From assembly GCA_965222605.1 (NCBI GenBank), contig OZ244960.1, forward strand, positions 384,001 to 448,000: DNA of 64,000 nucleotides. The letters run 5' to 3'. Positions 48,176 through 64,000 of this stretch are shown here, in pieces (the stretch's first letter is position 1; every line of letters begins with the position of its first letter). Below the pieces are notes generated by a model. The model worked only from the letters and a program-made list of their open reading frames with translations. It was not told where the DNA came from and made no database searches. The stretch is from Candidatus Latescibacterota bacterium (GTDB lineage: Bacteria; Latescibacterota; UBA2968). The translations under genes and the position numbers were made by a program.

Positions 48176-49531
48176 TTGTCCCTTACTGCAAACAATCATT
48201 CCCGCGAAAGGAGCGTGATTTTTTTGGACGATCCTTGGCCAGCAGTTTTTATAACCATCGCTTCTATTGTCCTGACAGCAGCTTTCTCCAGGCTCGGCTC
48301 AATTGGTATTTCGCGCACAACCCTCGAACGCCTGCACGAAGAGAAAATAGCACGCGCAGGACTCTACCTTTGGCTCTATCGCTCCCGCGATTTTGTGTCA
48401 CAAATGGTTTTGCTCGGTCAGACAATCGCCATATCTATAGGAGCTTTGGCACTGCTATCCATTCTTTTTCAGACGTTAAAACCGGGTTTCTGGCTGTATC
48501 CCGGCGCAGCATTGCTCATCGCACTTTATGTATTTATCGCCCTGATCATTCGCAGCATCGTCCCCCCCTACCGAAGAGAAGAGGGATCAGATCGCCCGCT
48601 GCCCTTTTTGCCGATATGTTTTTTCCCCTTTTACTTTATTCTTGTTATTCCAACACTGCTGTTGCAAAAAGCGCAAAATGTTTTCTTGAGCGAAGACGAT
48701 AGCAGAGCCCTAAAAGAAGAAGAATTGCGAAATATCGTTGAATCGGAAACAGAAGAAGGCACAATTGAAGCAGAAGAAAGAGAAATGATTGAGGGCATCT
48801 TTGAATTTGACGAAACAACGGTCAAAGAGGTGATGATCCCGCGTATAGATATGATTTCTGCTGAGATAACGGCCACGCCCAAAGAGCTTCTCAAACTGAT
48901 CCAACAATCCTGGCACTCGCGAATTCCCATCCATGAAGAACGAATCGATAACATCAAAGGCGTCGTTTATGTCAAAGATATTTTGCTCAATCTGGCGACC
49001 AATCAGCCGTGGTCTATTCCAGAGATCATGCGTGCGCCATACTTTGTGCCAGAAAATAAAACACTCGCTGAGCTAATGGCCGAATTTAAGCGCGAAAAAG
49101 TACACATGGCGATTGTCGTTGGAGAATATGGCGGAACGTCTGGGCTCATTACAATGGAAGATATTATCGAAGAAATTGTCGGTGAAATCCAAGACGAATA
49201 CGACGATGAGGAACCGCTTTTTGAATGGCGTGAAGAGGGCAAAATACTCATAGTAGATGCGCGTATTGACATCGAAGACCTCAATATCGTGCTCAACGTC
49301 GAACTGCCACAAGACGGTTACGAAACGCTCGGCGGATTTATATACAACGTGCTTGGACACGTGCCTCAGCCAAATGAAAATTTAGAACACGGAAATCTAT
49401 TTATTGAAATCCTCGCAGTCGTAGGACAGCGCATTACACGGGTAAAAATTACCAAACGCGGAGAGTCTTCACAGGACAAGCCAAAACGCGGTGAAGAGAT
49501 ACAAATGCAAAACGACAAGCCGCAGAAATAA
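48176..49531 (+). CDS. Hemolysin/CorC-type CBS-domain membrane protein
   Basis: EVMIPR, SRIP, EYGGTSGLITMEDIIEEIVGEIQDEYD, ETLGG; start uncertain. Confidence 0.9.
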   Translation: MSLTANNHSRERSVIFLDDPWPAVFITIASIVLTAAFSRLGSIGISRTTLERLHEEKIARAGLYLWLYRSRDFVSQMVLLGQTIAISIGALALLSILFQTLKPGFWLYPGAALLIALYVFIALIIRSIVPPYRREEGSDRPLPFLPICFFPFYFILVIPTLLLQKAQNVFLSEDDSRALKEEELRNIVESETEEGTIEAEEREMIEGIFEFDETTVKEVMIPRIDMISAEITATPKELLKLIQQSWHSRIPIHEERIDNIKGVVYVKDILLNLATNQPWSIPEIMRAPYFVPENKTLAELMAEFKREKVHMAIVVGEYGGTSGLITMEDIIEEIVGEIQDEYDDEEPLFEWREEGKILIVDARIDIEDLNIVLNVELPQDGYETLGGFIYNVLGHVPQPNENLEHGNLFIEILAVVGQRITRVKITKRGESSQDKPKRGEEIQMQNDKPQK

Positions 49532-49586
49532 CTTGACAATAACCCCAAAATCCCGTTCTTTTTTAACACTTATTTGGACATAGGGT

Positions 49587-49641
<55 letters not shown>

Positions 49642-49663
<22 letters not shown>

Positions 49664-50055
49664 AACGTATCGTCTCGCTGAACTTTGGTTCTATCTGCTT
49701 TATTACAATCAAACAAGGCGAGTTGAATCCCATCAGGGGTATAGATCAGGTAGTTAATATGCATTTGTAGGAGATCTTTCCGTTCCTCTGGTGTGGCTTC
49801 ATTATATAATTCCTCAAAGGTCGTGAGTTTTTGCTGCAACTGAGCAACACTTACGGCCTTTTGTTTTACCTCTGCCAGAGCTACTTCATTATCCATCATC
49901 TCCTGCTCTATTTGGCTTTTTTGCTCTTCCAGTTCGGTAATTTTCTGGATGATGGTTCTAATACCAACTTTCCGTCCAGCGATACTTTCCACCAAGACAC
50001 CCAGCTTCTTATCAATATCTTTGAGGTTTCTGTGATAATTTTCCTGTGCATTCAC
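49642..50055 (-). pseudogene. C-terminal remnant of a putative large serine recombinase/integrase, truncated by an IS5 element
   Basis: Coiled coil then ATPEERKDLLQMHINYLIYTPDGIQLAL; stop codon lies inside the tRNA; no catalytic domain visible. Confidence 0.6.
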
Positions 50056-50058
50056 TAA

Positions 50059-50985
50059 GAAGCTGTTTTAAAACTATTGTGAGTGAAGAAAAGGGTTGAA
50101 AAAGCGTATTCATCTGTCCAAATTCAGGTTATGCAAATCACCCTGAAACGAAAGGACAAAGATGAATACGCAAAGAGAATATCCGACAAATGTCACCCAA
50201 GCGCAATGGCAACTGCTTCTCCCCTTGCTGCCCAAACGCAAATGGCGAAAAGGCGGCCCTGGACGCCCTCCTGCCAATTTGCGCCAAGTGTTCAATGGCA
50301 TCCTGTATCTGACGAAGACCGGCAGCCAATGGCGCATGCTACCCCATACCTTCGGCTGCTGGCAGACCGTGTATGGCTATTTCAATCGTTGGCGCGAGCA
50401 AGGCATCTTTGAGCAGGTGCAACAGGCACTCACGCGGCGAGAAAGAAAACGGCAGGGACGAGCGCCTACCGCATCAGCAGGCTGCATTGACAGCCAAAGT
50501 GTCAAGACAGCAACACAAGGAAAATCAAAAGGTTATGATGCTGGAAAAAAGGTCAATGGACGCAAACGCCATCTTCTCGTTGATACCCTCGGACTCGTCA
50601 TCAGCACCTATGTCTCGCCTGCTGATCTCCAAGACCGTGATGGCTTAAAGCAGGTGCTCAATCAGTATTTTGACACGGGAGAGACACGCTTACGCAAGCT
50701 ATGGGTCGATGGCGGCTATCGAGGTGAAGACCTCAAGAAATGGGTCGCTGCTAAGAAGCAGACGCATAAGATTGATCTTGAGGTTGTCACCCCAAAAGGC
50801 AAAGGCTTTCAACTCGTCAAACGCCGGTGGGTCGTCGAGCGCACCTTTGCCTAATTATTTAATTTTCGCCGACTATCAAAGGATTATGAAGACTTGACCG
50901 ACAGTAGTGAAGCCTTTATTCACATCGTTATGATTTACCTCTTAATCAACAGACTCGCTTAAGCGAGGGATTTTAAAACAGCTTC
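50059..50985 (+). mobile_element. IS5 family (IS1031-like) element
   Basis: 15-bp inverted repeats GAAGCTGTTTTAAAA / TTTTAAAACAGCTTC, with TAA on both flanks. Confidence 0.9.
50162..50962 (+). pseudogene. IS5 family transposase with an in-frame TAA at 50852-50854
   Basis: IDSQSVK, GYDAGKKVNGRKRH, VDGGY, RWVVERTFA*LFNFRRLSKDYE. Confidence 0.88.
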
Positions 50986-51445
50986 TAAGCCTTTTTCTCG
51001 ACGTGACTGGCAGCCATTCCAAAAGTGATCCAGGCCATAGGTCTTTTTGCCTGACTTGGGCACAAAGGAGGCATCTAAGACCAGAATACGCCCATGTGCT
51101 TGGTCTTGGTCTCTGCTTTCATTGATGATGGCACGGTTGAAATCCATAAATCGAAAGGGCTTGTCAAACTGACGGGTGTATGTGCGTTCGCAAAGGTGAG
51201 AATACCGTGACAGGTTGCGAAAATTGATTTTACCCCGTGCAATCAGTATGGTCGTAAATAGGGTCATGAGAAACTTTTTTTGGGGCTTGGAAATGTTGAG
51301 CCGATTGAGTATCTTTTCTGCGATTGCCATGGTGCCGTCTCACTCGTTTGGGTTGTCAGTGATCTGGAATATCTTTGACATCCAATCTGCGTGAACGGCA
51401 CTTTTTTGTCTATTCTTTTTTTACTCAAAACTGTCCGAAGTATTG
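50986..51445 (-). mobile_element. Truncated DDE transposase element (IS701/IS4-like), copy 1
   Basis: MAIAEKILNRLNISKPQKKF...LDASFVPKSGKKT; terminus CAATACTTCGGACAGTTTT shared with copy 2. Confidence 0.8.
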
Positions 51446-51518
51446 ATATTAAGTCAATAGACAAAATACGACTCTTGACAATTTCGGCAACAGCATCCAA
51501 AGCGGGGTAACTCCAACA

Positions 51519-53819
51519 TCACTTAACAGGATATCCTAAATCCTTTAAGATAGCCTTAGAAAACTCTGTAACAATATCTGCAGACAGGTAAAACTTCTGC
51601 GTAGGGTTACTATCAAGCCTAGTATCATATTCTCTATTCCAGGTTCCTCTCATAGACATTATATCACGAGGAACACCTAGATGAGTGCCATTACGATGAA
51701 GAGGTATTCCTGAAGCGTCTACCCAATTACCTCTTACAAGATAATTATCACTACTAAGACTAGACTGAGTAGTGATATCTCGATCTCCAATATAAGAATC
51801 TCCTGGCGAGTATCTCCATGATACGTAGAGCATCCAATAGTGATCTGAAGAACGATTAGATCCAGAATAACCGTTAATATAAGAATTAAACACTTCTTTG
51901 CTAGCAGGACCAACAAATATCCTGTCAAAGTATAAATCTTTTGCCTCTATCTTCCAACGGTTCCTACTATGGCCGTCAATAGCAGGCTCATCGCCAGATG
52001 AAGGAAGACTACCTGGATCTAATGGTTTATGTATAGCTATACCATGAGATACTTTATCCTCAGACAAGTATTGAGTATTAGCATCCCAAAGCCCTTTGTG
52101 ATTATCTCCGTAGTAACCTACAATATCCTCAACATAACGGTTCCAAATCGGATGACCATTGTGACCGGTATCACCAATACCTAAAACATGACCTATTTCA
52201 TGTTTGGCTACCCAAAACTGATCAACAAGTGATTTTGATGCAATACTTATTACACCAACAGCGGTTGGTCCACTGTCTCGCCACTCATAACCTAAAGCAG
52301 AACCTCCAACATTTGATTCCATTTCAGAAACGACATATACTAACAAATCGTCAACCTCTCGATCCTCTGGCAAGATAGTTATCGTCTTACCAGAATAACG
52401 TATCTTAGACCTCTGTAAGGTATGACCAGGAACTCCTCTTGAGAAAACCCGCTCCCAGAAGTTGTTTACACGCCCACGTATTAAGGTAGAATCAGGAAAA
52501 TCGGACTTGTCAACAAATACTAACTTTATATCAAAAGTATTATCAAAGTCAGAACCTCCTGGATTGTCAGGAGGAGTAGTATTGGTAGAAGTAACAACTT
52601 TAACAGAACTTCTACCTGTATTGACATCTGATGAACGAGGAGTATTAGAGGAACGAGGAGTATTAGAGGAACGAGGAGTATTAGAAGAACCTCTACCTGA
52701 ATATAAAGAGTTAGGATTTAAAAAACCACAATGCTCACCATAAAAACACAACGTATCACTACTCGCTATCACACCGTAATAACCCTTACCATGTTCCTCT
52801 AACTGACTATCTACTATCTCACGATGAACATAAAATGTACCGTCATAAACATAATTCTCATCCGAATTAGAACGACCGTTAAGTGTACGAATAAATACCG
52901 CATACGGACCCTCACTACCCTTAACACCATATCCCCACTCCGGCTCCTCCGTATCAAAATCATCAAACTCTATCGTGCCACGATAACTACCTCGCGGTAT
53001 CAATACCTTACGAACAGTACCATGATTCGCATTCCTGAAAACTAAACCAATATCCAAATCATGAGTAGCAGGAAACGGAATACTTACCTCAATCTCTGAA
53101 GGGTGAGCAATAGACTCATTAACACTGTCCAACCGACGCAAATTAAAACGAATAGGAAACTCCTCTCCCGGATTATTCTGCAAATGTACCGCCCGCAAAC
53201 TATCTAAACTGTAAAATATACTATCCGCCAATACCGATATATTGTTCCTGTTCAAAAATAGCTTCTTCACACTACTCAACCCACCAAAAGAATAAATATC
53301 TATATGCTCCAAACCATTATCCTCTAAACGCAATACCCGAACACTATCAAATCCAACAAAATCACCCCGACGCAACGAAATTATACCCAAATTACGCAAA
53401 TCTAATGTATCTCGAAAACTATTTAAATCATTTAACGTAACATCACCGCACGCCTTGTCACCACCCAAAATACGCAATACCTCCGTCTCTATCTCCGAAG
53501 TACGACCACAAAAAGAAAAATCTTCCTCATTATCAATATTATCTCCAAAATAATTATACAACATCATAAAATCCTCATTGTCAATCTTACCATCACTATT
53601 CAAATCAAACTTCGCATCATACTTATCGTCACCTTCAGAACTCGGATAAACATTAGAAAAAGCAAAAAAATCCTCTATCCCTACTATACCATTGCCATCA
53701 AAATCAGCCGATTTATTTTCCTCAACCGTTTGCTCATTATCCTGGTCATCCTGACTATGAACAAACACAGAAACCCCTAATACGAAAAGAATACAAAAAG
53801 TAAAAATTCTTGAAAACAT
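51519..53819 (-). CDS. Secreted protein: EF-hand/dockerin-like pair + LRR + S/T/P linker + HExxH zinc metalloprotease
   Basis: AAGGAG RBS; signal peptide; DFDGNGIVG...FDLNSDGKID; LRRs; (SSNTPR)x3; HEIGHVLGIG. Confidence 0.8.
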   Translation of the reverse strand: MFSRIFTFCILFVLGVSVFVHSQDDQDNEQTVEENKSADFDGNGIVGIEDFFAFSNVYPSSEGDDKYDAKFDLNSDGKIDNEDFMMLYNYFGDNIDNEEDFSFCGRTSEIETEVLRILGGDKACGDVTLNDLNSFRDTLDLRNLGIISLRRGDFVGFDSVRVLRLEDNGLEHIDIYSFGGLSSVKKLFLNRNNISVLADSIFYSLDSLRAVHLQNNPGEEFPIRFNLRRLDSVNESIAHPSEIEVSIPFPATHDLDIGLVFRNANHGTVRKVLIPRGSYRGTIEFDDFDTEEPEWGYGVKGSEGPYAVFIRTLNGRSNSDENYVYDGTFYVHREIVDSQLEEHGKGYYGVIASSDTLCFYGEHCGFLNPNSLYSGRGSSNTPRSSNTPRSSNTPRSSDVNTGRSSVKVVTSTNTTPPDNPGGSDFDNTFDIKLVFVDKSDFPDSTLIRGRVNNFWERVFSRGVPGHTLQRSKIRYSGKTITILPEDREVDDLLVYVVSEMESNVGGSALGYEWRDSGPTAVGVISIASKSLVDQFWVAKHEIGHVLGIGDTGHNGHPIWNRYVEDIVGYYGDNHKGLWDANTQYLSEDKVSHGIAIHKPLDPGSLPSSGDEPAIDGHSRNRWKIEAKDLYFDRIFVGPASKEVFNSYINGYSGSNRSSDHYWMLYVSWRYSPGDSYIGDRDITTQSSLSSDNYLVRGNWVDASGIPLHRNGTHLGVPRDIMSMRGTWNREYDTRLDSNPTQKFYLSADIVTEFSKAILKDLGYPVK
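52633..52686. repeat. 18-bp coding tandem repeat, three copies
   Basis: GAACGAGGAGTATTAGAG units encoding SSNTPR on the minus strand. Confidence 0.85.
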
Positions 53820-53868
53820 ATTTAACTCCTTATAAAGTGGGCTTGACCGTTTCATTATCAAACGTTTT

Positions 53869-54766
53869 TAGGGTCGAAAATTCTGTAAAAAGGTAGCCCC
53901 GTGATAGGGGTCAGAGATTTTATTTTAAGTACGTCATGTCCAGATATCGTCTGCCTGATATCCACTCGTCAGACCACTCCATACACAAGGCCCCGATCAG
54001 GCGTTCACATGCTTGCTCGTTAGGGAAGATCTGGACCACATCAGCACGTCTTCGGGGTCCACTCCCTGCGATCCCACTGACGATTAAGACGCCTTCAGAG
54101 ACGACCTGCCCAGCAGATCGGATGTAGAGATAGGTCGCATCAATGATCAGATAAGGGTATGCCTGTTCAAGGGGTCGCTCGCGCCAGGCTTTTATGTCTG
54201 CATCTATTTCTTGACACAAGTCAGAGACCTGAGACTTTGAAAAGGAGGTACCACACAACTGTTCTGTGATCTTGGATACTTTGCGTGTGGAGACACCTTG
54301 CAGATACGCCTCTTGAAGGGCAAGAATGAGTGCTTTTTCACTGCGTTGAAAGCGTGCAAATAACCCACTGTGGAATCGCCCTTCCCGATCTTGAGGGACG
54401 CTCAGTTCGATACGGCCAACGCGCGTTTTGACAATCCGAGGTTTATATCCGTTACGGTATCCTGTACGATCTTCGGTTCTTTGATAGGGTTCTGCTTGTA
54501 AAAATGTGGCGATCTCGGCTTCGAGAAACTGCTGCAGGTAGCGGGTCACGATCTGATTGAGAAAATCAGGATCATTCAAAAGTGCGAAACGATGTACAAC
54601 TGGTCGCAGTCCAGATCAGTTCATTGCTCTGGCGCGGCAATTTTAATATCTTTGGGGTAAGTCATCGTAGCCTCCAAGTTGGGGTTAGAATACGTGTCAC
54701 CCCTATTTTAAGATTTTTCTCGGAGCTACGGTGACTTTTTCAATTTTACAGAAATATATGGACGCT
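53869..54766 (-). mobile_element. IS256 family remnant with internal deletion
   Basis: RNGYKPR..KTRVGRIELSVPQDREG, GVSTRKV, joined directly to C-terminal IFPNEQACERL; imperfect IRs (TTCTGTAAAA / TTTTACAGAA); early stop after the ATG near 54665. Confidence 0.85.
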
Positions 54767-55412
54767 ATCCGCTAAATACTGATCTATTCGGGTTTCATCG
54801 TCTGTTTCGGTGTTCTTATTCGCCTTTGTGACAGTCGTTTTTTGCGCCTTCTTGGTGTCCGCTTTAGGTGCGGTTTGAGCAACGGAGAGGGTAAAACCCG
54901 TGTTTTTGTCCACATCCAAAAGCGCAATTCCCAAGATTTCTAAGCCCTTTTCTCGACGCGACTGGCAGCCATTCCAAAAGTGATCCAGGCCATAGGTCTT
55001 TTTGCCTGACTTGGGCACAAAGGACGCATCTAAGACCAGGATACGTGCAGGTGCTTGGTCTTGGTCTTGGTCTTGGTCTATGCTTTCATTGATGATGGCG
55101 CGGTTGAAATCCATAAATCGAAAGGGCTTGTCAAACTGACGGGTGTATGTGCGTTCGCAAAGGTGGGAATACCGTGACAGGTTACGAAAATTGATTTTAC
55201 CCCGTGCAATCAGTATGGTCGTAAATAGGGTCATGAGAAACTTTTTTTGGGGCTTGGAAATGTTGAGCCGATTGAGTATCTTTTCTGCGATTGCCATTGT
55301 GCCGTCTCACTCGTTTGGGTTGTCAGTGATTTGGAACATCTTTGACATCTAATCTGAGTGAACGGCACTTTTTTGTCAATCCTTTAGATCATAAAAACTG
55401 TCCGAAGTATTG
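54767..55412 (-). mobile_element. Truncated DDE transposase element (IS701/IS4-like), copy 2, cut by IS256
   Basis: Near-identical to 50986-51445; ORF 54746..55297. Confidence 0.8.
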
Positions 55413-55457
55413 ATAATAATAATAAACAAGTCCGGAAGGTGATAAATCCCAAACTAC

Positions 55458-56759
55458 CTACCTGTTACTCACCCTCCAAGCGGCCATTTCTATATGAGCA
55501 TTTCTTGCTACGACGTATTTACCATCTGGACTGAAAGCAACTACATCATTGCGACTACCAAGAGAGTATATCTCATCAGTAACAAACTCAATCGTAAATT
55601 CCTGCTGCCCAATTGGGTTCTTTAACTTCACCATTGCCAATGCCTGGCGATATCCCGGATCTATTGAGAGATAACCTGTCTTAGTAACCCTATCCCAATT
55701 GTTGAAAAGACTACGGGCATCATCTCTATTGATCTCCAGCCTTCTGTTATAACTCTGGCTTTCTCCGTTGAGGGTTACCTCAAAAGTAACGGGGAAGTAT
55801 TCCTCATTGGCATTGTATGTATCCAGTGTCACTGTAATGTCGTTCGTTCGAAAAACTCTGCGATACAATTGCCCGATTTGGGCTTGCTTATCCTTAAATC
55901 CGTAGCGTTCTCGAAGCTCCCGACGAGCCTTTGCCTCTATGGAATCCAATTGGTTTAAACGAGCCGCATATTGTTCATCGGATTCAAACTGATCTTTGGG
56001 GCCGCTAAGTCGGTGATTTTCTCGCTTTTCAGCGATCTCTTGCTCAATCTGTTCAAGTTCAGCCTTAAGGGTTTGTATTTGAGCAACGGTGTCGTCAAAC
56101 GTATTCCCACCTTCAACAGTAACGCGGACCCCTGAGGAACAGTTATTTTGTGTATTGCTCTCTCCACTCACGCTTTCCACACAAGCACCGTAGTAATAGA
56201 AACCAGCAGTATTTGGTGCTTTCAAGCTGATTGACTCAGAACTGGTGTCAGAAGCCGATATACTCCCCACCGCGTCGTCACCTGCTGACGTGTCGTTGAT
56301 CGTAATTGTCGCGTCGGTCGAGCGATAATAGCGCAAGGTCGTAGCCTCAGACTGACCATTGCCCTGGTTGCGGACCGTTGCCCGCAGGGTAAAGGATTGT
56401 CCTGGCGTCAAGGTGTCATCACTTACCGAAGGCGATTCAACAATCAGGTCCGGACTACCACTGCCACCGCCACCACCGCCGCTAGTGGTCGGCACCTCTT
56501 TGCCGAAGTTATCGATAAAGATCAGAAAATCCGGAATCCCAATCACACCATTGCTATCCAGATCATACTTCGCTTGATATGTCCCATCGCCCTGGCTTGA
56601 TCCGAACTGATTTACAAATAACAAAAAGTCGGGAATACCAACCACACCATCCCCATCAAAGTCCGAAGAAGGTGTCACAGAGCCAGGTTGTAATTCGACG
56701 CGAGCAGCCAGCGTCACGGTCTCTAATTGCCCACTCCGGCCAATTACACCACGCACCAA
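55458..56759 (-). pseudogene. EF-hand pair + CARDB-like Ig domain + coiled coil + start of a WD40 repeat; probably decayed
   Basis: DFDGDGVVGIPDF...YDLDSNG; PDLIVESPSVS...NNCS; VAFSPDGK; no clear signal peptide; TAG followed by in-frame VVWDL up to an IS end. Confidence 0.65.
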
Positions 56760-56875
56760 CCAAATCGCTGTGCCTATACGCGGCGCAGTCGTCGGAGATA
56801 GCCATAGCCCCAGTGAAGGTCTTGTACTTCATACCGTTCATCGCCCTAACGGGACTTAGACTTAATTTTATTAAC

Positions 56876-56890
56876 GCAAAAAGCGTGCCA
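56876..56890 (-). promoter_or_regulatory. Sigma-54 -24/-12 promoter
   Basis: TGGCAC-GCTTT-TTGC. Confidence 0.75.
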
Positions 56891-56930
56891 ATGTGAGCGT
56901 TTTTCCAGAAATTTTATTCGTGAAGGGGCG

Positions 56931-57063
56931 TAAAGAGTTGTTTTACATAAAGAAAAAGAGCTAATCTGACTATATTATATCGTCGCAGAATAGTCGGATT
57001 GGCTCTTTTGCAAGACCTTATATGGTCTTAAAAGACGTACTATAGTCTCAATGGTCCCGAGAG
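56931..57063 (-). promoter_or_regulatory. Putative enhancer (UAS) + IHF-like cassette, copy A
   Basis: Inverted near-copy of 60542-60672. Confidence 0.7.
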
Positions 57064-57130
57064 TATAGTACATCCTTAGGTTCTTTCTATGACCAGGCCA
57101 CTTGAGCGCACGGGCAAGGAAAAAAATAAG

Positions 57131-57165
57131 AAAGCCCGTCAATCGATAGTGATCGACGGGCTTTT
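57131..57165. terminator. Bidirectional terminator after the activator gene
   Basis: AAAGCCCGTC...GACGGGCTTT. Confidence 0.75.
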
Positions 57166-57212
57166 ATTTGTACTCGAGGTGAGCAGAGGGGTATAATTAC
57201 GATAGCAGTTTA

Positions 57213-60200
57213 TCAGCGATGGTTTAGTTTGATGCCCAGTCTTTTCATTTTCCCATACAGCGTAGAAGGCGGTACGCTTAGCAGCTTCGCCGCGCCCCTG
57301 GGTCCCTTTATCAGATAGTTCGTGGCTTCGAGCGCGTCGAGGATGTAGCGGCGTTCAAATTCATCCAAAGGCACGAATTCGCGGTCATGAGGAGCCGATA
57401 AGGTCTGCCTCTCAGGACCTGTATCTTTGATTCGAGAACCATACAGTCCCAGATTCCCCTTTCTGATTTGAGAATCAGGACACAAAACCACTGCCCGCTG
57501 TATGGTATGCTCCAATTCCCGCACATTCCCAGGCCAATCGTAGCTTTGCAACACCTCGATAATTTCTGCCGTCAAGGGGGCAATTTGCTTGCCTATATGC
57601 CCTGCCATGCGATCCTTGAAAAACTCGGCCAACTCAAGTATATCCTCCTTGCGCTCGCGCAGGGGCGGCAGATACATCGGAAAGGCATTGAGGCGGTAAT
57701 ACAGATCCTCCCGAAAATCACCTGCACTGACCATCTCCTCAAGGTTGCGATTCGTCGCTGCCACAATCCGCGTCTTTGCCGTCAGCGTCTCACTGCTTCC
57801 AATTCGCTCAAACGTGCCCTCTTCCAGCAAGCGCAACAGCTTGACCTGCGTTTCCACAGCCATATCGCCGATCTCATCTAAAAAGAGCGTACCACCCTCC
57901 GCCAGTTCCACCCTGCCCAGCCTGTGGAAAACTGCGCCGGTAAAAGCCCCTCTCTCGTGACCAAACAGTTCACTATCGATCAACGCTCCGGGCAATGCGC
58001 CGCAACTAACCTCGATAAAAGGCCCATCGCTATAGGCACTCAGCGCGTGTAGTGTCCGAGCAGCCAGGCCCTTACCCACACCTGTCTCGCCTATAATTAG
58101 CACGGTCATATTGGTAGATGCAATTTTTTCAAGATTGATTTGAAATTGGCGCAGAGCCGCGCTGTGACCGATAAACTTCTGGCTTTCTCGACGGTTAATT
58201 ACGTCCGTCAATGCTTCGATACGCGGGTCAGGCGCTACCGAGATTTGCACCTGTGCCATTTCCGAATAATTGAGGTCGCGATCTATCGCCTTGACCTGAA
58301 AGGTGTATTCTCCCGGCAACAAGTCCCGGTAAAAGGCCCGCATCCTTCGGGTTGCAGGCTGCCAATCGGCATCATAGCCATTCAGGCGATAGATGTAGAG
58401 CATGTCGCTGGGATGGGTGGAAAAACTCAGGCCCTTGTACTCGAAAATCACCTGCTGTCCTGCCGTAGCTACGATGGCTTCCTCCGGATTCTCATATTCT
58501 TGATCAGCGATCACCTGAAGCAGGCGAATCCGGGGTGGGATCTTTTGTTGCCGATAGCGCACCAGAGAATTTTGGACTGTACCAAACCAGAAGGCTCCAT
58601 CACGATCTTCGAGTATCCGACAAACCGGTCCTATATGCGATGAGTTGATGGTCTGGAAAACCTGACTATCGTAGTGAGCCAGGCCCCCGTCTGTGCCAAT
58701 CCAGAGGTGCCCTTGCCGATCTTCGAGCAAGCAACGGATGCGACTGCTCGGCAAACCGTCTTCCGTCGTGAAGGTCTGGAAGGTACTGCCATCAAAGCAA
58801 CAAAGACCACTCAGAGTAGCGATCCACAGGTTTCCATGGCGGTCTTCTATAAGATCTGTGACCCTGTCGTCGATCAGCCCGTCTTCAATCCCATAAAATT
58901 GGAGCCCATCTTCGGGATGCCAGCGCGCGAAGCCCTTGTAGGTGTAAGATGCCTTATGGTAGGCCAGATGGAACCATACCTCGCCGTTGCGCCCAACAAT
59001 CACAGTGCTAATGCGGTTGAAAGGCTCTTTCTCCTCCTGCTCCACAAAAATGGTTTGGAACGCCTCGCCATGCTGGTAAATGAGTTTTAATGGACTGGCA
59101 AAAAGGTCTCTTCTTTTTTTTATGCCATTTTCCCAATATCCCAAAACGAATCGCCCTTGTGAGTCCTGGGTGATTGCACAAACTCCCCCTTCGCTTAAAT
59201 CCGCGACTGATTCTATTTTTTTTAGCTTCTTCCCATCGTAGCAGAATAAGCCATTGCCGCCGCCGAACCACAGATGCTCGTCCTGGTCCTCGTAGATAGA
59301 AAAACAGTTGTTGATATCCAGGTTATCCTCTGTGCCTACAAAGGCAAATTCCTCGCCATTGAAGCGAAAAAGGCTGTACGTCAGATGGTTGAGAAAAGGA
59401 TCGGCATACCCGACCCATATATCACCTCGCCGGTCTTGCACGATCTGCGAGATATCCCGCATTTTTGATAACTCCCCATTGGGCCCCTTGATTTCGAAAA
59501 CACTGGTACTATGTGCATCGTAAAGACCGACGCCACCCCAGGTGGCGAACCAATACTGATGATTGCGATCTTGGAACACGGCTTTGATTGCGAGATGGGG
59601 CAGGCCATCTGCCTGGGTAAACCTGCTGAATCCATCACCATCCTGATAGAGCACTTCCATTGAAGTGCTAAACCACATCCGACCTTCTCGATCACACTGA
59701 ATTTTGCGCAATGGACCACCAAAATCTATCTGAACAGCCTGGAAGTTGCCGTCGGTATAGCACCAGAGTTTGCTCTCTTGTCTGCGCTGACCAAACCACA
59801 CCTTGCCGGTATGGTCCCGACCAACAGCATAGCTCGTCGAGCGTGGAGGAAAACCCTCTTTCTCATCATATCGGTGAAAGGATACGCCATCAAAGCGGAT
59901 GAGATAGTCAAAACCAAACCACAGGTGACCTTCAGGATCCTGAGTAATGCCCCGACACTGGTTGGGCCAGGAAGGAGAAGGAGGCTCCTCGTAGTGCTGA
60001 AGATAGAGTGGGATCAGGTCGTGGAACACAATGCCGTCGTAATATCCCAGAGTGCGGTGACCACCACACCATATACGCCCTTCACGGTCTTCGTAAATGA
60101 ACTGCACTGCGCGGCCTGCGATCCCCTCGTCCTCCAAATGGTGGAAATCTGTCCCATCATACCAGCAGACACCATCTAATGTACCGAACCACAACCGATT

Positions 60201-60425
60201 TTGACTGTCCTGAAAAACAAAATAAACGCGGTCACTAACAAGACCATCCCGTCGCGTAAAATTCTGGAACTCGTCCCCATCAAAGCGGCTGACCCCATTG
60301 TCCCATATGGCGAACCAGAGATAACCCTCGTTATCCTCGGCAATGTGTTCAATGCGCACCCCGGCCAGGCCGTCGGCCATAGAATAAGTCCGCCAGGTGC
60401 CCGTGCGGTCAAGCGATTTGATCAT
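57213..60425 (-). CDS. Sigma-54 enhancer-binding protein with N-terminal two-component-regulator propeller repeats and Y_Y_Y domain
   Basis: Repeated DGL...I.ED..G.LW.GT; YIYRLNGYD..W...LPGEYTFQVKA; GETGVGKG, GAFTGA, LFLDEIG, FREDLYYRL, WPGNVRELE; C-terminal HTH. Confidence 0.92.
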   Translation of the reverse strand: MIKSLDRTGTWRTYSMADGLAGVRIEHIAEDNEGYLWFAIWDNGVSRFDGDEFQNFTRRDGLVSDRVYFVFQDSQNRLWFGTLDGVCWYDGTDFHHLEDEGIAGRAVQFIYEDREGRIWCGGHRTLGYYDGIVFHDLIPLYLQHYEEPPSPSWPNQCRGITQDPEGHLWFGFDYLIRFDGVSFHRYDEKEGFPPRSTSYAVGRDHTGKVWFGQRRQESKLWCYTDGNFQAVQIDFGGPLRKIQCDREGRMWFSTSMEVLYQDGDGFSRFTQADGLPHLAIKAVFQDRNHQYWFATWGGVGLYDAHSTSVFEIKGPNGELSKMRDISQIVQDRRGDIWVGYADPFLNHLTYSLFRFNGEEFAFVGTEDNLDINNCFSIYEDQDEHLWFGGGNGLFCYDGKKLKKIESVADLSEGGVCAITQDSQGRFVLGYWENGIKKRRDLFASPLKLIYQHGEAFQTIFVEQEEKEPFNRISTVIVGRNGEVWFHLAYHKASYTYKGFARWHPEDGLQFYGIEDGLIDDRVTDLIEDRHGNLWIATLSGLCCFDGSTFQTFTTEDGLPSSRIRCLLEDRQGHLWIGTDGGLAHYDSQVFQTINSSHIGPVCRILEDRDGAFWFGTVQNSLVRYRQQKIPPRIRLLQVIADQEYENPEEAIVATAGQQVIFEYKGLSFSTHPSDMLYIYRLNGYDADWQPATRRMRAFYRDLLPGEYTFQVKAIDRDLNYSEMAQVQISVAPDPRIEALTDVINRRESQKFIGHSAALRQFQINLEKIASTNMTVLIIGETGVGKGLAARTLHALSAYSDGPFIEVSCGALPGALIDSELFGHERGAFTGAVFHRLGRVELAEGGTLFLDEIGDMAVETQVKLLRLLEEGTFERIGSSETLTAKTRIVAATNRNLEEMVSAGDFREDLYYRLNAFPMYLPPLRERKEDILELAEFFKDRMAGHIGKQIAPLTAEIIEVLQSYDWPGNVRELEHTIQRAVVLCPDSQIRKGNLGLYGSRIKDTGPERQTLSAPHDREFVPLDEFERRYILDALEATNYLIKGPRGAAKLLSVPPSTLYGKMKRLGIKLNHR

Positions 60426-60541
60426 AGAAAGAACCTTGTGATATGGGTAAAAAGTGGATTCAAAAATTGAATCTCACACTTGCAAAAGAAACATAATATT
60501 GTATCTCACGCGTGCAAAGAAAAATATGAAGGGTGTAATAA

Positions 60542-60672
60542 TCTCGGGACTATTGAGACCATAATACGTCTTTTAAGACTTTATAAAGTCTTGTGTAAGA
60601 GCCAATCCGACTATTCTGCGACGATATGATATAGTCAGATTGGCTATTTTTCTTTTTAAAAACAACCCTTTA
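60542..60672 (+). promoter_or_regulatory. Putative enhancer (UAS) + IHF-like cassette, copy B
   Basis: Inverted near-copy of 56931-57063; GAC...GTC palindromes. Confidence 0.7.
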
Positions 60673-60703
60673 TAGATATAATGGCCTGGAACAACGATCA
60701 CAT

Positions 60704-60718
60704 TGGCACACTTTTTGC
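60704..60718 (+). promoter_or_regulatory. Sigma-54 -24/-12 promoter
   Basis: TGGCAC-ACTTT-TTGC. Confidence 0.78.
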
Positions 60719-60784
60719 ATGTAAACTAATGTTCAAGTCTCGTCAGATGGAATTGACCAATTTTGGGTAACATTTATTGAAGGA

Positions 60785-62932
60785 GTGTGGAATATAAAAA
60801 AAACCTGGGTGTTTATGAATGTTATCGCTCTTGCGGCACTGGTATGTGTGGGGTATGTCTCTGCTAATACGACACCTTCTGCGGACTTTGATGGAGATGG
60901 TATCGTAGGTATTCCTGACTTTTTGGAGTTTGTGGAGAAGTTCGGATCCCGTCAAGGCGATGGGACATATCAAGCCAAGTATGATCTGGACGGCAATGGT
61001 GTGATTGGGATACCAGACTTTTTGATATTTGTCGATTCGTTTGGCAAAGAAGTGCCGTCACAGACAGTGAGGTTGTCGGTGTGTGACCGTACGGGTGCCG
61101 TGCGCGACTCGATTGTGGCATTAGTGCCTGTAAGCACTTGCGGCGATGTGACAGCGGCGCATCTGTCTGTAATAGATTCTCTCAGTCTTGCTGGCGCAAG
61201 GCTCACAGCACTGAAGGCTGGGGATTTATCTGGTCTGACAGGTCTGACAAAGCTCAGCCTGCAAGAGAATCGACTCAGTAGCTTGCCCGATGGTCTCTTT
61301 GATGACCTGACCGCGCTTAGCAGGCTCTATCTGGAAGAGAATCGACTGACGTCAATCCCTTCCGAATTGTTCAGCCTTTCTAATCTCACTTACCTGAACC
61401 TCGGTGACAATCGGTTGAGTGGTGAGATTCCAAAAGAATTGGGCAACCTATCTAACCTTACGCTACTGGCTCTTCACAGTAATCAGTTGGGTGGTGAGAT
61501 TCCAAAAGAATTGGGCAACCTGTCTAATCTTACAGTACTGAGGCTTTATAGTAATCAGTTGGGTGGTGAGATTCCAAAAGAATTGGGCAATCTGTCCAAG
61601 CTCACTGAACTGGACCTCGGCGACAATCAGTTGAGTGGTGAGATTCCAAAAGAATTGGGCAATCTGTCTAACCTTACAGTACTGGGTCTTAACCTTAGTC
61701 AGTTGAGTGGTGAGATTCCAGGAGAATTGGGTAAACTCTCTAACCTTACAATACTGGCTCTTCACAGCAATCAGTTGAGTGGTAGGATTCCAGCAGAATT
61801 AGGTAAACTCTCTAATCTTGAGATTCTGAGGCTCGAGGATAACGCATCCTTGACAGGTGCGCTTCCCCAAAGCCTGACCGGGCTGACAAAGCTGACGCAA
61901 TTTTACTTTAATAACACAGGGTTATGCGCGCCGCTTGATGCTGCCTTTCAGATGTGGCTTCAGGGCATTGCAGAAACCAATGGCTCGAATTGTACAGTAG
62001 GGTTGTCGGTATGTGACCGCACGGGTGCTGTGCGCGACGGGATTGTAGCATTAGTACCTGTAAGTGCTTGCGGCGATGTGACAGCGGAGCATTTGGCTGC
62101 GATAAATTCTCTCAATTTGGCTGGCGCAAGCCTCACAGAATTGAAGGCTGGGGATTTTTCTGGTCTGACTGGTCTGGCAACGCTCAGTCTGCAAGGGAAT
62201 CAACTTAGTAGCCTGCCCGATGGTCTCTTTGATGATCTGGCCTCACTCGGTTGGCTCTATCTGGGCGGTAATCAACTGACTGCAATTCCCTCCGAATTGT
62301 TCACTCTTCCCAATCTTACACTACTGCATCTTTGGGGCAATCAGTTGGGTGGTGAAATTCCAACAGAATTGGACAATCTGTCCAATCTCACGGTCCTGGA
62401 TCTCGGCGATAATCAGTTGAGTGGTGAGATACCAACAGAATTGGGCAACCTATCTAACCTTACACTACTGAGTCTTCGCAGCAATCAGTTGAGTGGTGCG
62501 ATTCCAACAGAATTGGGCAACCTATCTAACCTTACACTACTGAGTCTTCACAACAATCAGTTGAGTGGTGCGATTCCAACAGAATTGGGCAATCTTTCTA
62601 ACCTTACGCAACTGTATCTTGGCATCAATCAGTTGAGTGGTGCGATTCCAACAGAATTGGGCAATCTTTCTAACCTTACGCAACTGTATCTTGGCATCAA
62701 TCAGTTGGAAGGTCAGATTCCAACAGCATTGGGCAACTTGTCCAATCTTGAGGTTCTGTGGCTCCAGGATAACACATCCTTGATGGGGGCGTTACCTCAA
62801 AGCCTGAGTGGGCTGACGAAGCTGACGCAATTTTACTTTAATAACACAGGGCTATGTGCGCCGCTTGATGCTGCCTTTCAGGCGTGGCTTCAGGGCATTA
62901 CAGATGCCAGTGGCTCGAATTGCTCGGGATAG
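60785..62932 (+). CDS. Secreted EF-hand-tagged leucine-rich repeat protein with two tandem plant-type LRR modules
   Basis: Signal peptide; DFDGDGIVGIPDF; 24-aa LxxLxLxxNQLSGEIPxELGN repeats; duplicated caps SVCDRTGAVRD and LCAPLDAAFQxWL. Confidence 0.92.
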   Translation: MWNIKKTWVFMNVIALAALVCVGYVSANTTPSADFDGDGIVGIPDFLEFVEKFGSRQGDGTYQAKYDLDGNGVIGIPDFLIFVDSFGKEVPSQTVRLSVCDRTGAVRDSIVALVPVSTCGDVTAAHLSVIDSLSLAGARLTALKAGDLSGLTGLTKLSLQENRLSSLPDGLFDDLTALSRLYLEENRLTSIPSELFSLSNLTYLNLGDNRLSGEIPKELGNLSNLTLLALHSNQLGGEIPKELGNLSNLTVLRLYSNQLGGEIPKELGNLSKLTELDLGDNQLSGEIPKELGNLSNLTVLGLNLSQLSGEIPGELGKLSNLTILALHSNQLSGRIPAELGKLSNLEILRLEDNASLTGALPQSLTGLTKLTQFYFNNTGLCAPLDAAFQMWLQGIAETNGSNCTVGLSVCDRTGAVRDGIVALVPVSACGDVTAEHLAAINSLNLAGASLTELKAGDFSGLTGLATLSLQGNQLSSLPDGLFDDLASLGWLYLGGNQLTAIPSELFTLPNLTLLHLWGNQLGGEIPTELDNLSNLTVLDLGDNQLSGEIPTELGNLSNLTLLSLRSNQLSGAIPTELGNLSNLTLLSLHNNQLSGAIPTELGNLSNLTQLYLGINQLSGAIPTELGNLSNLTQLYLGINQLEGQIPTALGNLSNLEVLWLQDNTSLMGALPQSLSGLTKLTQFYFNNTGLCAPLDAAFQAWLQGITDASGSNCSG

Positions 62933-63035
62933 GACGCGCGAACGGATGACAAACCGTCGGAAGGAAAATTCTAAGATGATATAAGCCCCAACCCACTCTC
63001 CCAAGCAGGTATTATCAGGTATAGGGTTGGGACAA

Positions 63036-63092
63036 GACGGGCGCCAGCAGGAGAATGAGTGACCCGGCGCCCGTCGCTGTTCTTTATTTTTT
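63036..63092 (+). terminator. Terminator after the LRR gene
   Basis: GACGGGCGCC...GGCGCCCGTC followed by a T-rich tract. Confidence 0.6.
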
Positions 63093-63098
63093 GATAAC

Positions 63099-63340
63099 TG
63101 GAGTTACCCCGCTTTAGTGTATAGTGTAGAAGGTTCCACCGAAGCATCTTATGTCAACTGTGGACTTGACCCGCTTTGGTGGAGTATTTAGAGCTTGGGT
63201 TTCAAGCCTGTGATTGATGCAGCTTGCCGTATAGAATCATTACGGCACATGCTTCGTAAGCTATCGGCGCATGATAGGCGATGGAAGAATGCCTGCGATG
63301 CGGATTATACCATCCTTCAATGTAGAAGAAGATGGCCAAC
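63099..63340 (-). mobile_element. IS3 family remnant: two IR-like ends plus a transposase C-terminal fragment
   Basis: TGGAGTTACCCCGCTTT (63099) and TGGACTTGACCCGCTTT (63161); AIFFYIEGWYNPHRRHSSIAY. Confidence 0.75.
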
Positions 63341-63425
63341 GGTGCTTCCTTGTGTGTATGGAAATAGCAACCATTCGTAGGCATTGTGCTTATCGGTGGT
63401 TGCTTTTAATGAAAGGTGAGACGTC

Positions 63426-64000
63426 ATGCATGGAGTGATCAGGAGTTTTGTTATAATCCTGTTGGGGTTCTTCACGGTTGCATCCGCCCAACTACCACCG
63501 GAGACTCTGGCGGACAAATATCTGATTCAGGCAGAACAGCTACTTGAAAAAAAAGACTATGTGGCTGCGCTCAACATGATGGACAAGATCATCGCGCTTC
63601 AAAAAGAGCACAATATCACATTACTGGACGAGTTCCACTTCAAGTATGCCCAGGTTGCCTTTTCAACAGGCTCGATGCAGACCGCGCTTGAGGCGGTGAG
63701 CAAGTATCTGTCAGTAGGGAGGGAAGGCGAGTTTTACAAGGAGGCACTGGCGTTGTTGATCAAGATTGAGGAGGCACTTGAGGGGCTTAAGGTCACTCCT
63801 GAGAATACATGTGATGGAAAGCCTGTAGGCTCGAGTTGTTGGATGGCGTTGACCAACCAGCCTGAATGCTATGTCTGGAATTCCCATCTTATGAATCACG
63901 AGACCCGGACTTACGATCCCCTGAAGGACGAGACCGTGACCTGGTCTGGCGAGTGTTCTGGTGGCTTTGCCCAGGGTAAGGGAACACTCATCTGGAATTA
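63426..64000 (+). CDS. Secreted protein with a TPR-like N-terminal domain, a Cys-containing module and a MORN-like start; runs off the window
   Basis: Hand translation MHGVIRSFVIILLGFFTVASAQLPPETLADKYLIQAEQ...FHFKYAQ...TVTWSGECSGGFAQGKGTLIWN; not in the ORF track. Confidence 0.8.
   Translation, partial: MHGVIRSFVIILLGFFTVASAQLPPETLADKYLIQAEQLLEKKDYVAALNMMDKIIALQKEHNITLLDEFHFKYAQVAFSTGSMQTALEAVSKYLSVGREGEFYKEALALLIKIEEALEGLKVTPENTCDGKPVGSSCWMALTNQPECYVWNSHLMNHETRTYDPLKDETVTWSGECSGGFAQGKGTLIWN

Follow-up and report, generated by a model that had tools for sequence, protein, structure and literature searches.

We describe here a 64,000-nucleotide (nt) stretch of a Candidatus Latescibacterota bacterium genome (GenBank assembly GCA_965222605.1, contig OZ244960.1, positions 384,001 to 448,000 of the forward strand; hereafter the window), in which the gene for a soluble bacterial enhancer-binding protein (bEBP) is flanked by two inverted near-copies of a cassette ending in a -24/-12 promoter (Table 1). 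Our reading, to which we give a probability of roughly 70%, is that this protein is a genus-expanded one-component sigma-54 activator with a cognate cassette, that residue 1058 of the protein and one base of the candidate binding sites form a code, and that the right-hand unit is functional and the left-hand one a leftover. The covariation of residue 1058 with site base 4 is the new element, whereas the core transcription mechanism is textbook. The anatomy of the cassettes, their linkage to the activator across the family, the covariation and the decay of the left target are observed; binding, looping, ligand and expression are what we infer.

The activator comprises two β-propellers (residues ~1-625), a Y_Y_Y domain (~626-733), an AAA+ domain (~750-992) and a Fis-type helix-turn-helix (HTH; ~1020-1066), the last matching HTH_8 above the Pfam cut-off (E 1.4e-6). 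All AAA+ motifs are intact (Walker A/B, GAFTGA, R-finger and sensor II); GAFTSA replaces GAFTGA in 93 of 120 homologues, and the window activator keeps the canonical form. A hydropathy scan found neither a signal peptide nor a hydrophobic helix, and since the maximum over a 19-residue window is only 1.15 (at most 1.52 across 36 full-length family members), the protein appears to lack a transmembrane helix. Its AlphaFold (AF2) model, built on an alignment of 136 sequences, has a pLDDT of 84.8, and the best Foldseek matches are the sensor domains of BT4663 and BT3049, followed by FleQ/NtrC1. The matches to these periplasmic sensors of hybrid two-component systems (HTCS) reach E 1e-41 and a target TM-score of 0.62-0.68 at 18-19% identity, and HTCS sensors also match by sequence; BT4663 is, according to its PDB title, a heparin/heparan sulfate HTCS sensor. 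Variation within the family (116 alignment rows) clusters in short propeller stretches, which may reflect diversification of a ligand site. The genome encodes rpoN, four HU/IHF-family genes and, among 18 AAA+ activator matches, four activator paralogues, one with an internal stop. With rpoN present and a -24/-12 promoter adjoining upstream palindromes, the system has the sequence features that a bEBP calls for. The first-pass annotation had proposed a soluble propeller-sensor bEBP with enhancer/IHF/-24/-12 cassettes before EF-hand-tagged protein genes, and the presence of rpoN and HU/IHF-family genes, the linkage of cassette and activator and the covariation of site and HTH all support such a bEBP, its cognate cassettes driving exported proteins.

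The inverted near-copies on either side of the activator proved real: 56942-57066 and 60538-60662 match at 87%, 56876-56908 and 60686-60718 at 91%, and the two full-length cassettes align with 152 of 180 aligned bases identical and a single 11-nt indel. Both the GAC-N8-GTC palindromes and the boxes resembling sites for integration host factor (IHF) lie in each cassette where the annotation had placed them. The outward-pointing TGGCAC-N5-TTGC, put at about 30-40 bp past the IHF-like box, begins 31 nt from it on the right and 40 nt on the left, a difference of about one helical turn. The boxes were sought with the general consensus patterns for IHF and -24/-12 sites. The combination of a -24/-12 box and an upstream IHF-like box turns up 10 times in the genome, compared with 0, 1 and 0 times in three block-shuffled genomes. 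Sigma-70 promoter matches are at chance level (6 vs 5.1). The perfect palindrome at 60577-60590 is a derived variant, another sample showing the family consensus bases at 60580-60581.

The association of activator and cassette extends across the family. A first set comprised 41 loci (37 relatives and four of this genome) and a held-out set 56 further activators, with eight duplicates removed; three -24/-12 matches lacking a cassette (L030 upstream, L036 second and L039 upstream) were excluded by visual inspection ahead of the counts. An adjacent -24/-12 cassette is present at 35 of the 41 first-set loci, mostly as one copy placed tandem downstream or divergent upstream, and an IHF-like box lies in 37 of 41 cassettes, either 27-31 nt (35) or 40 nt (2) before the -24 box. 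In the held-out set, a hidden Markov model (HMM) of the cassette matched at 28 of 31 same-genus loci. An HMM built from relatives alone recovers 12 cassette copies in this genome at E < 1e-7, five of which flank the four paralogues and two of which flank activator remnants. The closest named relatives of the activator come from Latescibacterota metagenome-assembled genomes at 36 of 37 loci, the remaining one being titled Rhodothermaceae, and the sensor is matched at E <= 1e-100 in 42 of 168 genomes of the phylum, including 15 of 20 of the same genus. Paralogues of the family reach at least six per genome. Among 20 hand-picked distant relatives, the sensor is joined to sigma-54 domains in 11, kinases in seven and SpoIIE phosphatases in two; a scan of metagenome contigs gave no confirmed relative.

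Protein and DNA are also linked by a covariation. The recognition helix, VPPSTLYxKM, is near-invariant save for x, residue 1058, which in 120 homologues is Gly (56), Ser (31), Asn (25) or Thr (7), with one unmatched. This residue tracks base 4 of the palindrome, Gly and Asn going with C and Ser and Thr with G. With a site caller that ignored positions 4 and 11, the first set gave 38 C and 2 G for Asn, 17 G and 3 C for Ser, 15 G and 1 C for Thr, and 30 C and 18 G for Gly. Held-out loci, fetched after the prediction had been written down, gave 24 C and 6 G for Gly, 5 C and 1 G for Asn, 15 G and 1 C for Ser, and 5 G and 1 C for Thr. Residue 1058 ranks first of 1046 protein columns, with an excess mutual information of 0.70, the next column reaching 0.33. 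Among eight independent pairs, 7.6 changed in the same direction and 0 in the opposite one (median p ~0.008). In addition, one activator remnant of this genome keeps a Ser helix next to G-type sites. The recognition helix of LuxO from Vibrio cholerae (V420-L429) is in register with V1051-M1060 of the window activator, and residue 1058 aligns with LuxO R427; in LuxO, R427 is required for DNA binding and its alanine variant fails to bind (PMC11407668), whereas the family has Gly, Asn, Ser or Thr at the corresponding position, in step with one site base. Residue 1058 is a candidate specificity position of the HTH, and the covariation suggests that the HTH recognizes the upstream candidate sites.

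Table 1. Features of the activator locus; positions count from the first letter of the window.
Feature	Position	Strand	Details
Soluble bEBP, 1070 aa	57213..60425	-	Pfam: Reg_prop, Y_Y_Y, Sigma54_activat, HTH_8
Right cassette, candidate activator sites	60546..60590	+	Half-site 60546-60553; GAC-N8-GTC at 60557-60570 and 60577-60590; from family alignment and covariation
Right cassette, long-spaced inverted arms, conserved	60597..60648	+	Arms 60597-60614 and 60631-60648
Right cassette, IHF-like box	60660..60672	+	Resembles the consensus WATCAA-N4-TTR
Right -24/-12 promoter	60704..60718	+	TGGCAC-N5-TTGC; start predicted near 60730
Right cargo, leucine-rich repeat (LRR) gene	60785..62932	+	Signal peptide, dockerin/EF-hand-like tag, two blocks of 24-aa plant-type LRRs
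Left cassette, candidate activator sites	57014..57058	-	Half-site 57051-57058; sites 57034-57047 and 57014-57027
Left cassette, inverted arms	56956..57007	-	Arms 56990-57007 and 56956-56973
Left cassette, IHF-like box	56931..56943	-	40 nt before the -24 box
Left -24/-12 promoter	56876..56890	-	TGGCAC-N5-TTGC; start predicted near 56864
Decayed activator 5'-end stub, 39 nt, within left duplicate	57078..57116	+	85% to 60398-60436
Left cargo remnant	55458..56828	-	Cohesin-like domain tail, tag, CARDB, coiled coil; from Pfam and alignment with the L009 homologue
Intrinsic-terminator-like hairpin behind activator, insulating left cassette	57131..57164	-	

Several points weigh against this reading. 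Residue 1058 and the site caller were picked by eye on the first set, and Gly is ambiguous or permissive there. The pair test covered the 38 loci at which one base held the majority; tied loci and those with no called site were dropped, and an AAA-only tree leaves five pairs (p ~0.06); the activator proteins look recombinant, and the trees are FastTree or quick ones. Tandem cassettes lie ~200 bp from the HTH codon, making co-inheritance possible. Outside the genus, a recognizable cassette was found at just 2 of 23 loci, within a flank of ~700-900 nt. Binding by the activator and expression from the cassette are both deduced from sequence, and the proposed glycan ligand from a modelled fold likeness at 18-19% identity. 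At the right-hand gene the ancestral ATG (as in L008, L009 and L024) reads ATA at 60794-60796 and the next in-frame ATG is at 60815, thus the right unit is possibly weakened. Finally, the outer arms are the most conserved part of the cassette, and the model does not account for them.

These inverted arms, of which 68 cassettes hold 45 distinct pairs, are spaced by 24 or 33-39 nt and are conserved in all residue classes. We think it unlikely that they form an RNA hairpin (a terminator or leader) rather than protein sites, and such a hairpin would leave the rest of the model as it is. Nearly every cassette has a run of T behind its right arm, and mismatches of the G-U type on the top strand (50) outnumber A-C ones (33); however, 34 mismatches are of other kinds, the primary sequence of the arms is conserved across paralogues, and the arms are kept in divergent cassettes, which have no read-through to stop. 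In line with this, an Rfam scan of 49000-64000 returned a tRNA as its sole match, and the mismatch pattern as a whole, with its weak G-U bias, gives no clear support for a hairpin. Our guess is that the arms are bound by a second DNA-binding factor.

The first-pass annotation had instead described a self-contained sense-and-display regulon: two eukaryote-like proteins under the joint control of one activator, with a shared tag marking the members. Both downstream frames do carry the same DFDGDG.VGIPDF...KYDLD tag, cassettes stand before tagged genes more often than expected (3 of 12, against 2.5% at random, with the first gene tagged at 14 of 41 family cassettes), and double flanks recur at L007, L009, L024, L033 and L101. 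Nevertheless, the tag occurs on 108 open reading frames (ORFs) of the genome, and 105 of them have no cassette within 3 kb, leaving just three that do. Many cargo genes are untagged, and only 6 of the 97 family loci show two cassettes facing outward, the other 91 having no double flank. The expectation that a genome-wide motif scan would hit upstream of other tagged genes was thus borne out as an enrichment but not for most tagged ORFs, and the idea that the tag defines a regulon is already largely refuted; the enrichment fits a general preference for exported cargo. The two-target unit fares no better, the left target being truncated, and we regard the regulon as a whole as distinctly improbable. 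The role in host interaction that the annotation thought plausible is conjectural; TonB receptors, a PL8 lyase and a GH5 enzyme are likewise found among the cargo of relatives.

The state of the left side, where the annotation had missed both the activator stub and the broken gene, bears on the same question. The left duplication reaches into a stub of the activator start, that is, the activator 5' end without its promoter region, and L024 carries a similar stub. The left gene corresponds to the middle of an 843-aa gene that is intact at L009:12101-14629; it has lost its signal peptide and ~130 residues by a 5' deletion as well as its WD40 tail, and an insertion sequence (IS) lies directly behind it. 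The 5' junction is no assembly artefact, since it is bridged by contigs from three studies. In L011 the same site in the chromosome holds one divergent cassette, which faces as the left one does, and a reversed activator. The locus is most simply read as a fusion of two single-cassette modules followed by loss of one activator; the left cassette would then be what remains of a second module, its activator cut down to a stub and its cargo decayed. Among the contigs listed over the region none has a strand-changing joint, which is not evidence against an inversion. The functional unit in the window would be the activator, the right divergent cassette and the LRR gene. The terminator-like hairpin behind the activator has copies at two further genomic positions, in each case immediately behind tRNA genes.

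Seen across the genus, the real unit appears to be a shuffled module of activator, cognate cassette and exchangeable exported cargo such as an LRR or WD40 protein, a TonB receptor or a lyase. Both cargo and chromosomal site are exchanged among relatives, and the 25 cargo proteins scanned include LRR, WD40, fn3/cadherin, FGE-sulfatase, TonB-receptor plugs, a PL8 lyase, a GH5 enzyme and one response regulator. LRR/WD40 proteins have been described in sponge-associated Latescibacterota, in a report whose main text makes no mention of sigma, dockerin, cohesin or propeller (PMC12993501). The tag resembles a type I dockerin or EF-hand pair in having two Ca-loop-like motifs and in occurring in a genome with cohesin-like domains (eight matches, four over the cut-off). 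The left tag scores 24.9 against Pfam Dockerin_1 (cut-off 22.9), and the right tag, at 20.7, falls under that cut-off but passes EF-hand_1; the tag thus looks about equally dockerin-like and EF-hand-like. Unlike a type I dockerin, it spreads over so many ORFs, may be N-terminal, internal or C-terminal, and often follows a cohesin-like domain in the same protein.

A further alternative accepts the cassettes as real sigma-54 promoters but attributes the covariation to hitch-hiking of linked DNA, the sites or arms being read by another factor. The closeness of tandem cassettes to the HTH codon and the non-significant AAA-only tree test speak for it, as do, for another factor, the conservation of the arms in every residue class and the 18 AAA+ activator matches of this genome. 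On the other hand, divergent cassettes, 3.3 kb from codon 1058, obey the same rule: in 22 of them the forward half-sites have C in 29 of 29 cases with Gly and 6 of 6 with Asn, and G in 7 of 7 with Ser, although one Ser cassette yielded no forward half-site and the three informative Ser loci are perhaps just two events. In particular, the L109 activator, 86% identical to that of the window over the last 330 aa, has Ser at 1058, and its cassette is the window cassette with three C-to-G changes at the candidate half-sites, exactly the bases predicted to differ. Moreover, residue 1058 is the variable position of a helix that is otherwise near-invariant, and no other protein column comes near it in score. 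We therefore give hitch-hiking little credence and retain the code as part of the proposed module.

It is very improbable that the inverted copies are the ends of a mobile or invertible element, be it a miniature inverted-repeat transposable element (MITE), a pair of IS ends or a flip switch, with incidental promoter-like motifs. In favour of this idea, the region lies within an IS-rich island behind tRNA-Met, the L011 activator is reversed at the same site and modules occupy differing sites in relatives. Against it, the cassettes are single at most loci (L011 included), end with fixed polarity in a -24/-12 box aimed at genes, and in 7 of 12 copies lie beside family genes or remnants rather than in random contexts; the two copies here have no transposase or recombinase between them. 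Both promoters face outward, thus flipping would alter little. Targeting of the module to tRNA genes was considered and rejected (5 of 41 loci vs 8% at random).

Taken together, the proposed mechanism would run as follows. The cytoplasmic double-propeller/Y_Y_Y sensor would bind a small ligand, an imported oligosaccharide being the likeliest candidate, and ligand binding, to judge from bEBP biology, may free the AAA+ domain. HTH dimers would then sit on the 14-bp GAC-x-N6-x-GTC sites ~145-165 bp upstream of the start, as the covariation suggests, and a bend by an IHF-family protein would loop the activator to sigma-54 polymerase at TGGCAC-N5-TTGC, from which the exported cargo genes would be transcribed. 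Residue 1058 would set the preferred site base 4 (C for Gly/Asn, G for Ser/Thr) and partly separate paralogous circuits. More tentatively, and with less than even odds, the family may be a lineage-expanded toolkit of cytoplasmic glycan-sensing sigma-54 activators, in which propeller loops diversify the ligand, one residue and one base pair switch DNA specificity, and cassettes are recombined before interchangeable exported proteins. If so, the pairing of host- or diet-derived signals with displayed surface proteins would be rewired from strain to strain, and the family would offer a nearly orthogonal natural set of switches.

Should the circuit work as proposed, it would show how an uncultured lineage turns on eukaryote-like exported proteins, and, with promoter, sites and activator named, it could be rebuilt in E. 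coli. It would also show the glycan-sensor fold of membrane-bound Bacteroides regulators at work in the cytoplasm and coupled to sigma-54, and provide a rare natural one-residue/one-base code for a bEBP, with bearing on paralogue cross-talk and orthogonal sigma-54 switches. Classical enhancer-dependent sigma-54 activation by one-component bEBPs is represented by NifA, NorR and the NtrC/LuxO family (PMC7057263). The window activator shares with classical bEBPs the GAFTGA AAA+ domain, a C-terminal Fis-type HTH, upstream palindromes, an IHF-like bend site, the -24/-12 promoter and a cis-acting N-terminal regulatory domain. Unlike them, it has a sensor of 730 aa made of a double propeller and Y_Y_Y, and its family shows large sets of paralogues (at least six in the richest genome), each with its own cassette, mostly GAFTSA, and exchangeable cargo.

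With the Bacteroides HTCS proteins (BT4663, BT3049 and BT4673; 4a2l/4a2m, 3v9f and 3ott/3va6) the activator shares the tandem propeller plus Y_Y_Y sensor fold. In contrast to them, it has no signal peptide, transmembrane helix, HisKA, HATPase, receiver or AraC domain and has a sigma-54 output, features that point to a cytoplasmic protein rather than an HTCS. [quoted passage not shown] A search of open-access full text found no published description of this architecture or of the residue-base code.

Elsewhere in the genome, two orphan cassettes (G000:C1:2506300-2506550 and 2696730-2697017) adjoin fragments of deleted activators. A cassette at G000:C1:1284238-1284390, upstream of a Ser-type paralogue, has sites, arms and an IHF-like box and no -24/-12 box, and L075 is similar; autoregulation or decay are both possible. 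Tandem activators occur at L015, L023, L025, L036 and L041, where the cassette behind one activator points at the second, which suggests cascades. Related -24/-12 promoters with IHF-like boxes and different upstream sites lie at G000:C1:418130-418237 and 2343162-2343269, each before a receiver-like gene; the latter is followed by HlyD/ABC exporter and peptidase genes, an arrangement resembling clusters for ribosomally synthesized and post-translationally modified peptides.

Within the window, the island (49587-55412) begins behind tRNA-Met and contains several transposase fragments (IS4/5, two of DDE_5, and Mutator) together with a third tagged, LRR/peptidase-like gene (51519-53861) that has no cassette. 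Right behind the tRNA lies a coiled-coil ORF (49642-50055, minus strand) with weak coiled-coil matches only in Pfam, which we take to resemble the tail of a serine recombinase. On the other side, short repeated elements at 63096-63350, with ~19 more matches in the genome, precede a gene at 63426 and are possibly a leader RNA or a MITE. The segment 62962-63080 recurs directly downstream of the divergent cassette in L033 and is therefore maybe a portable leader.

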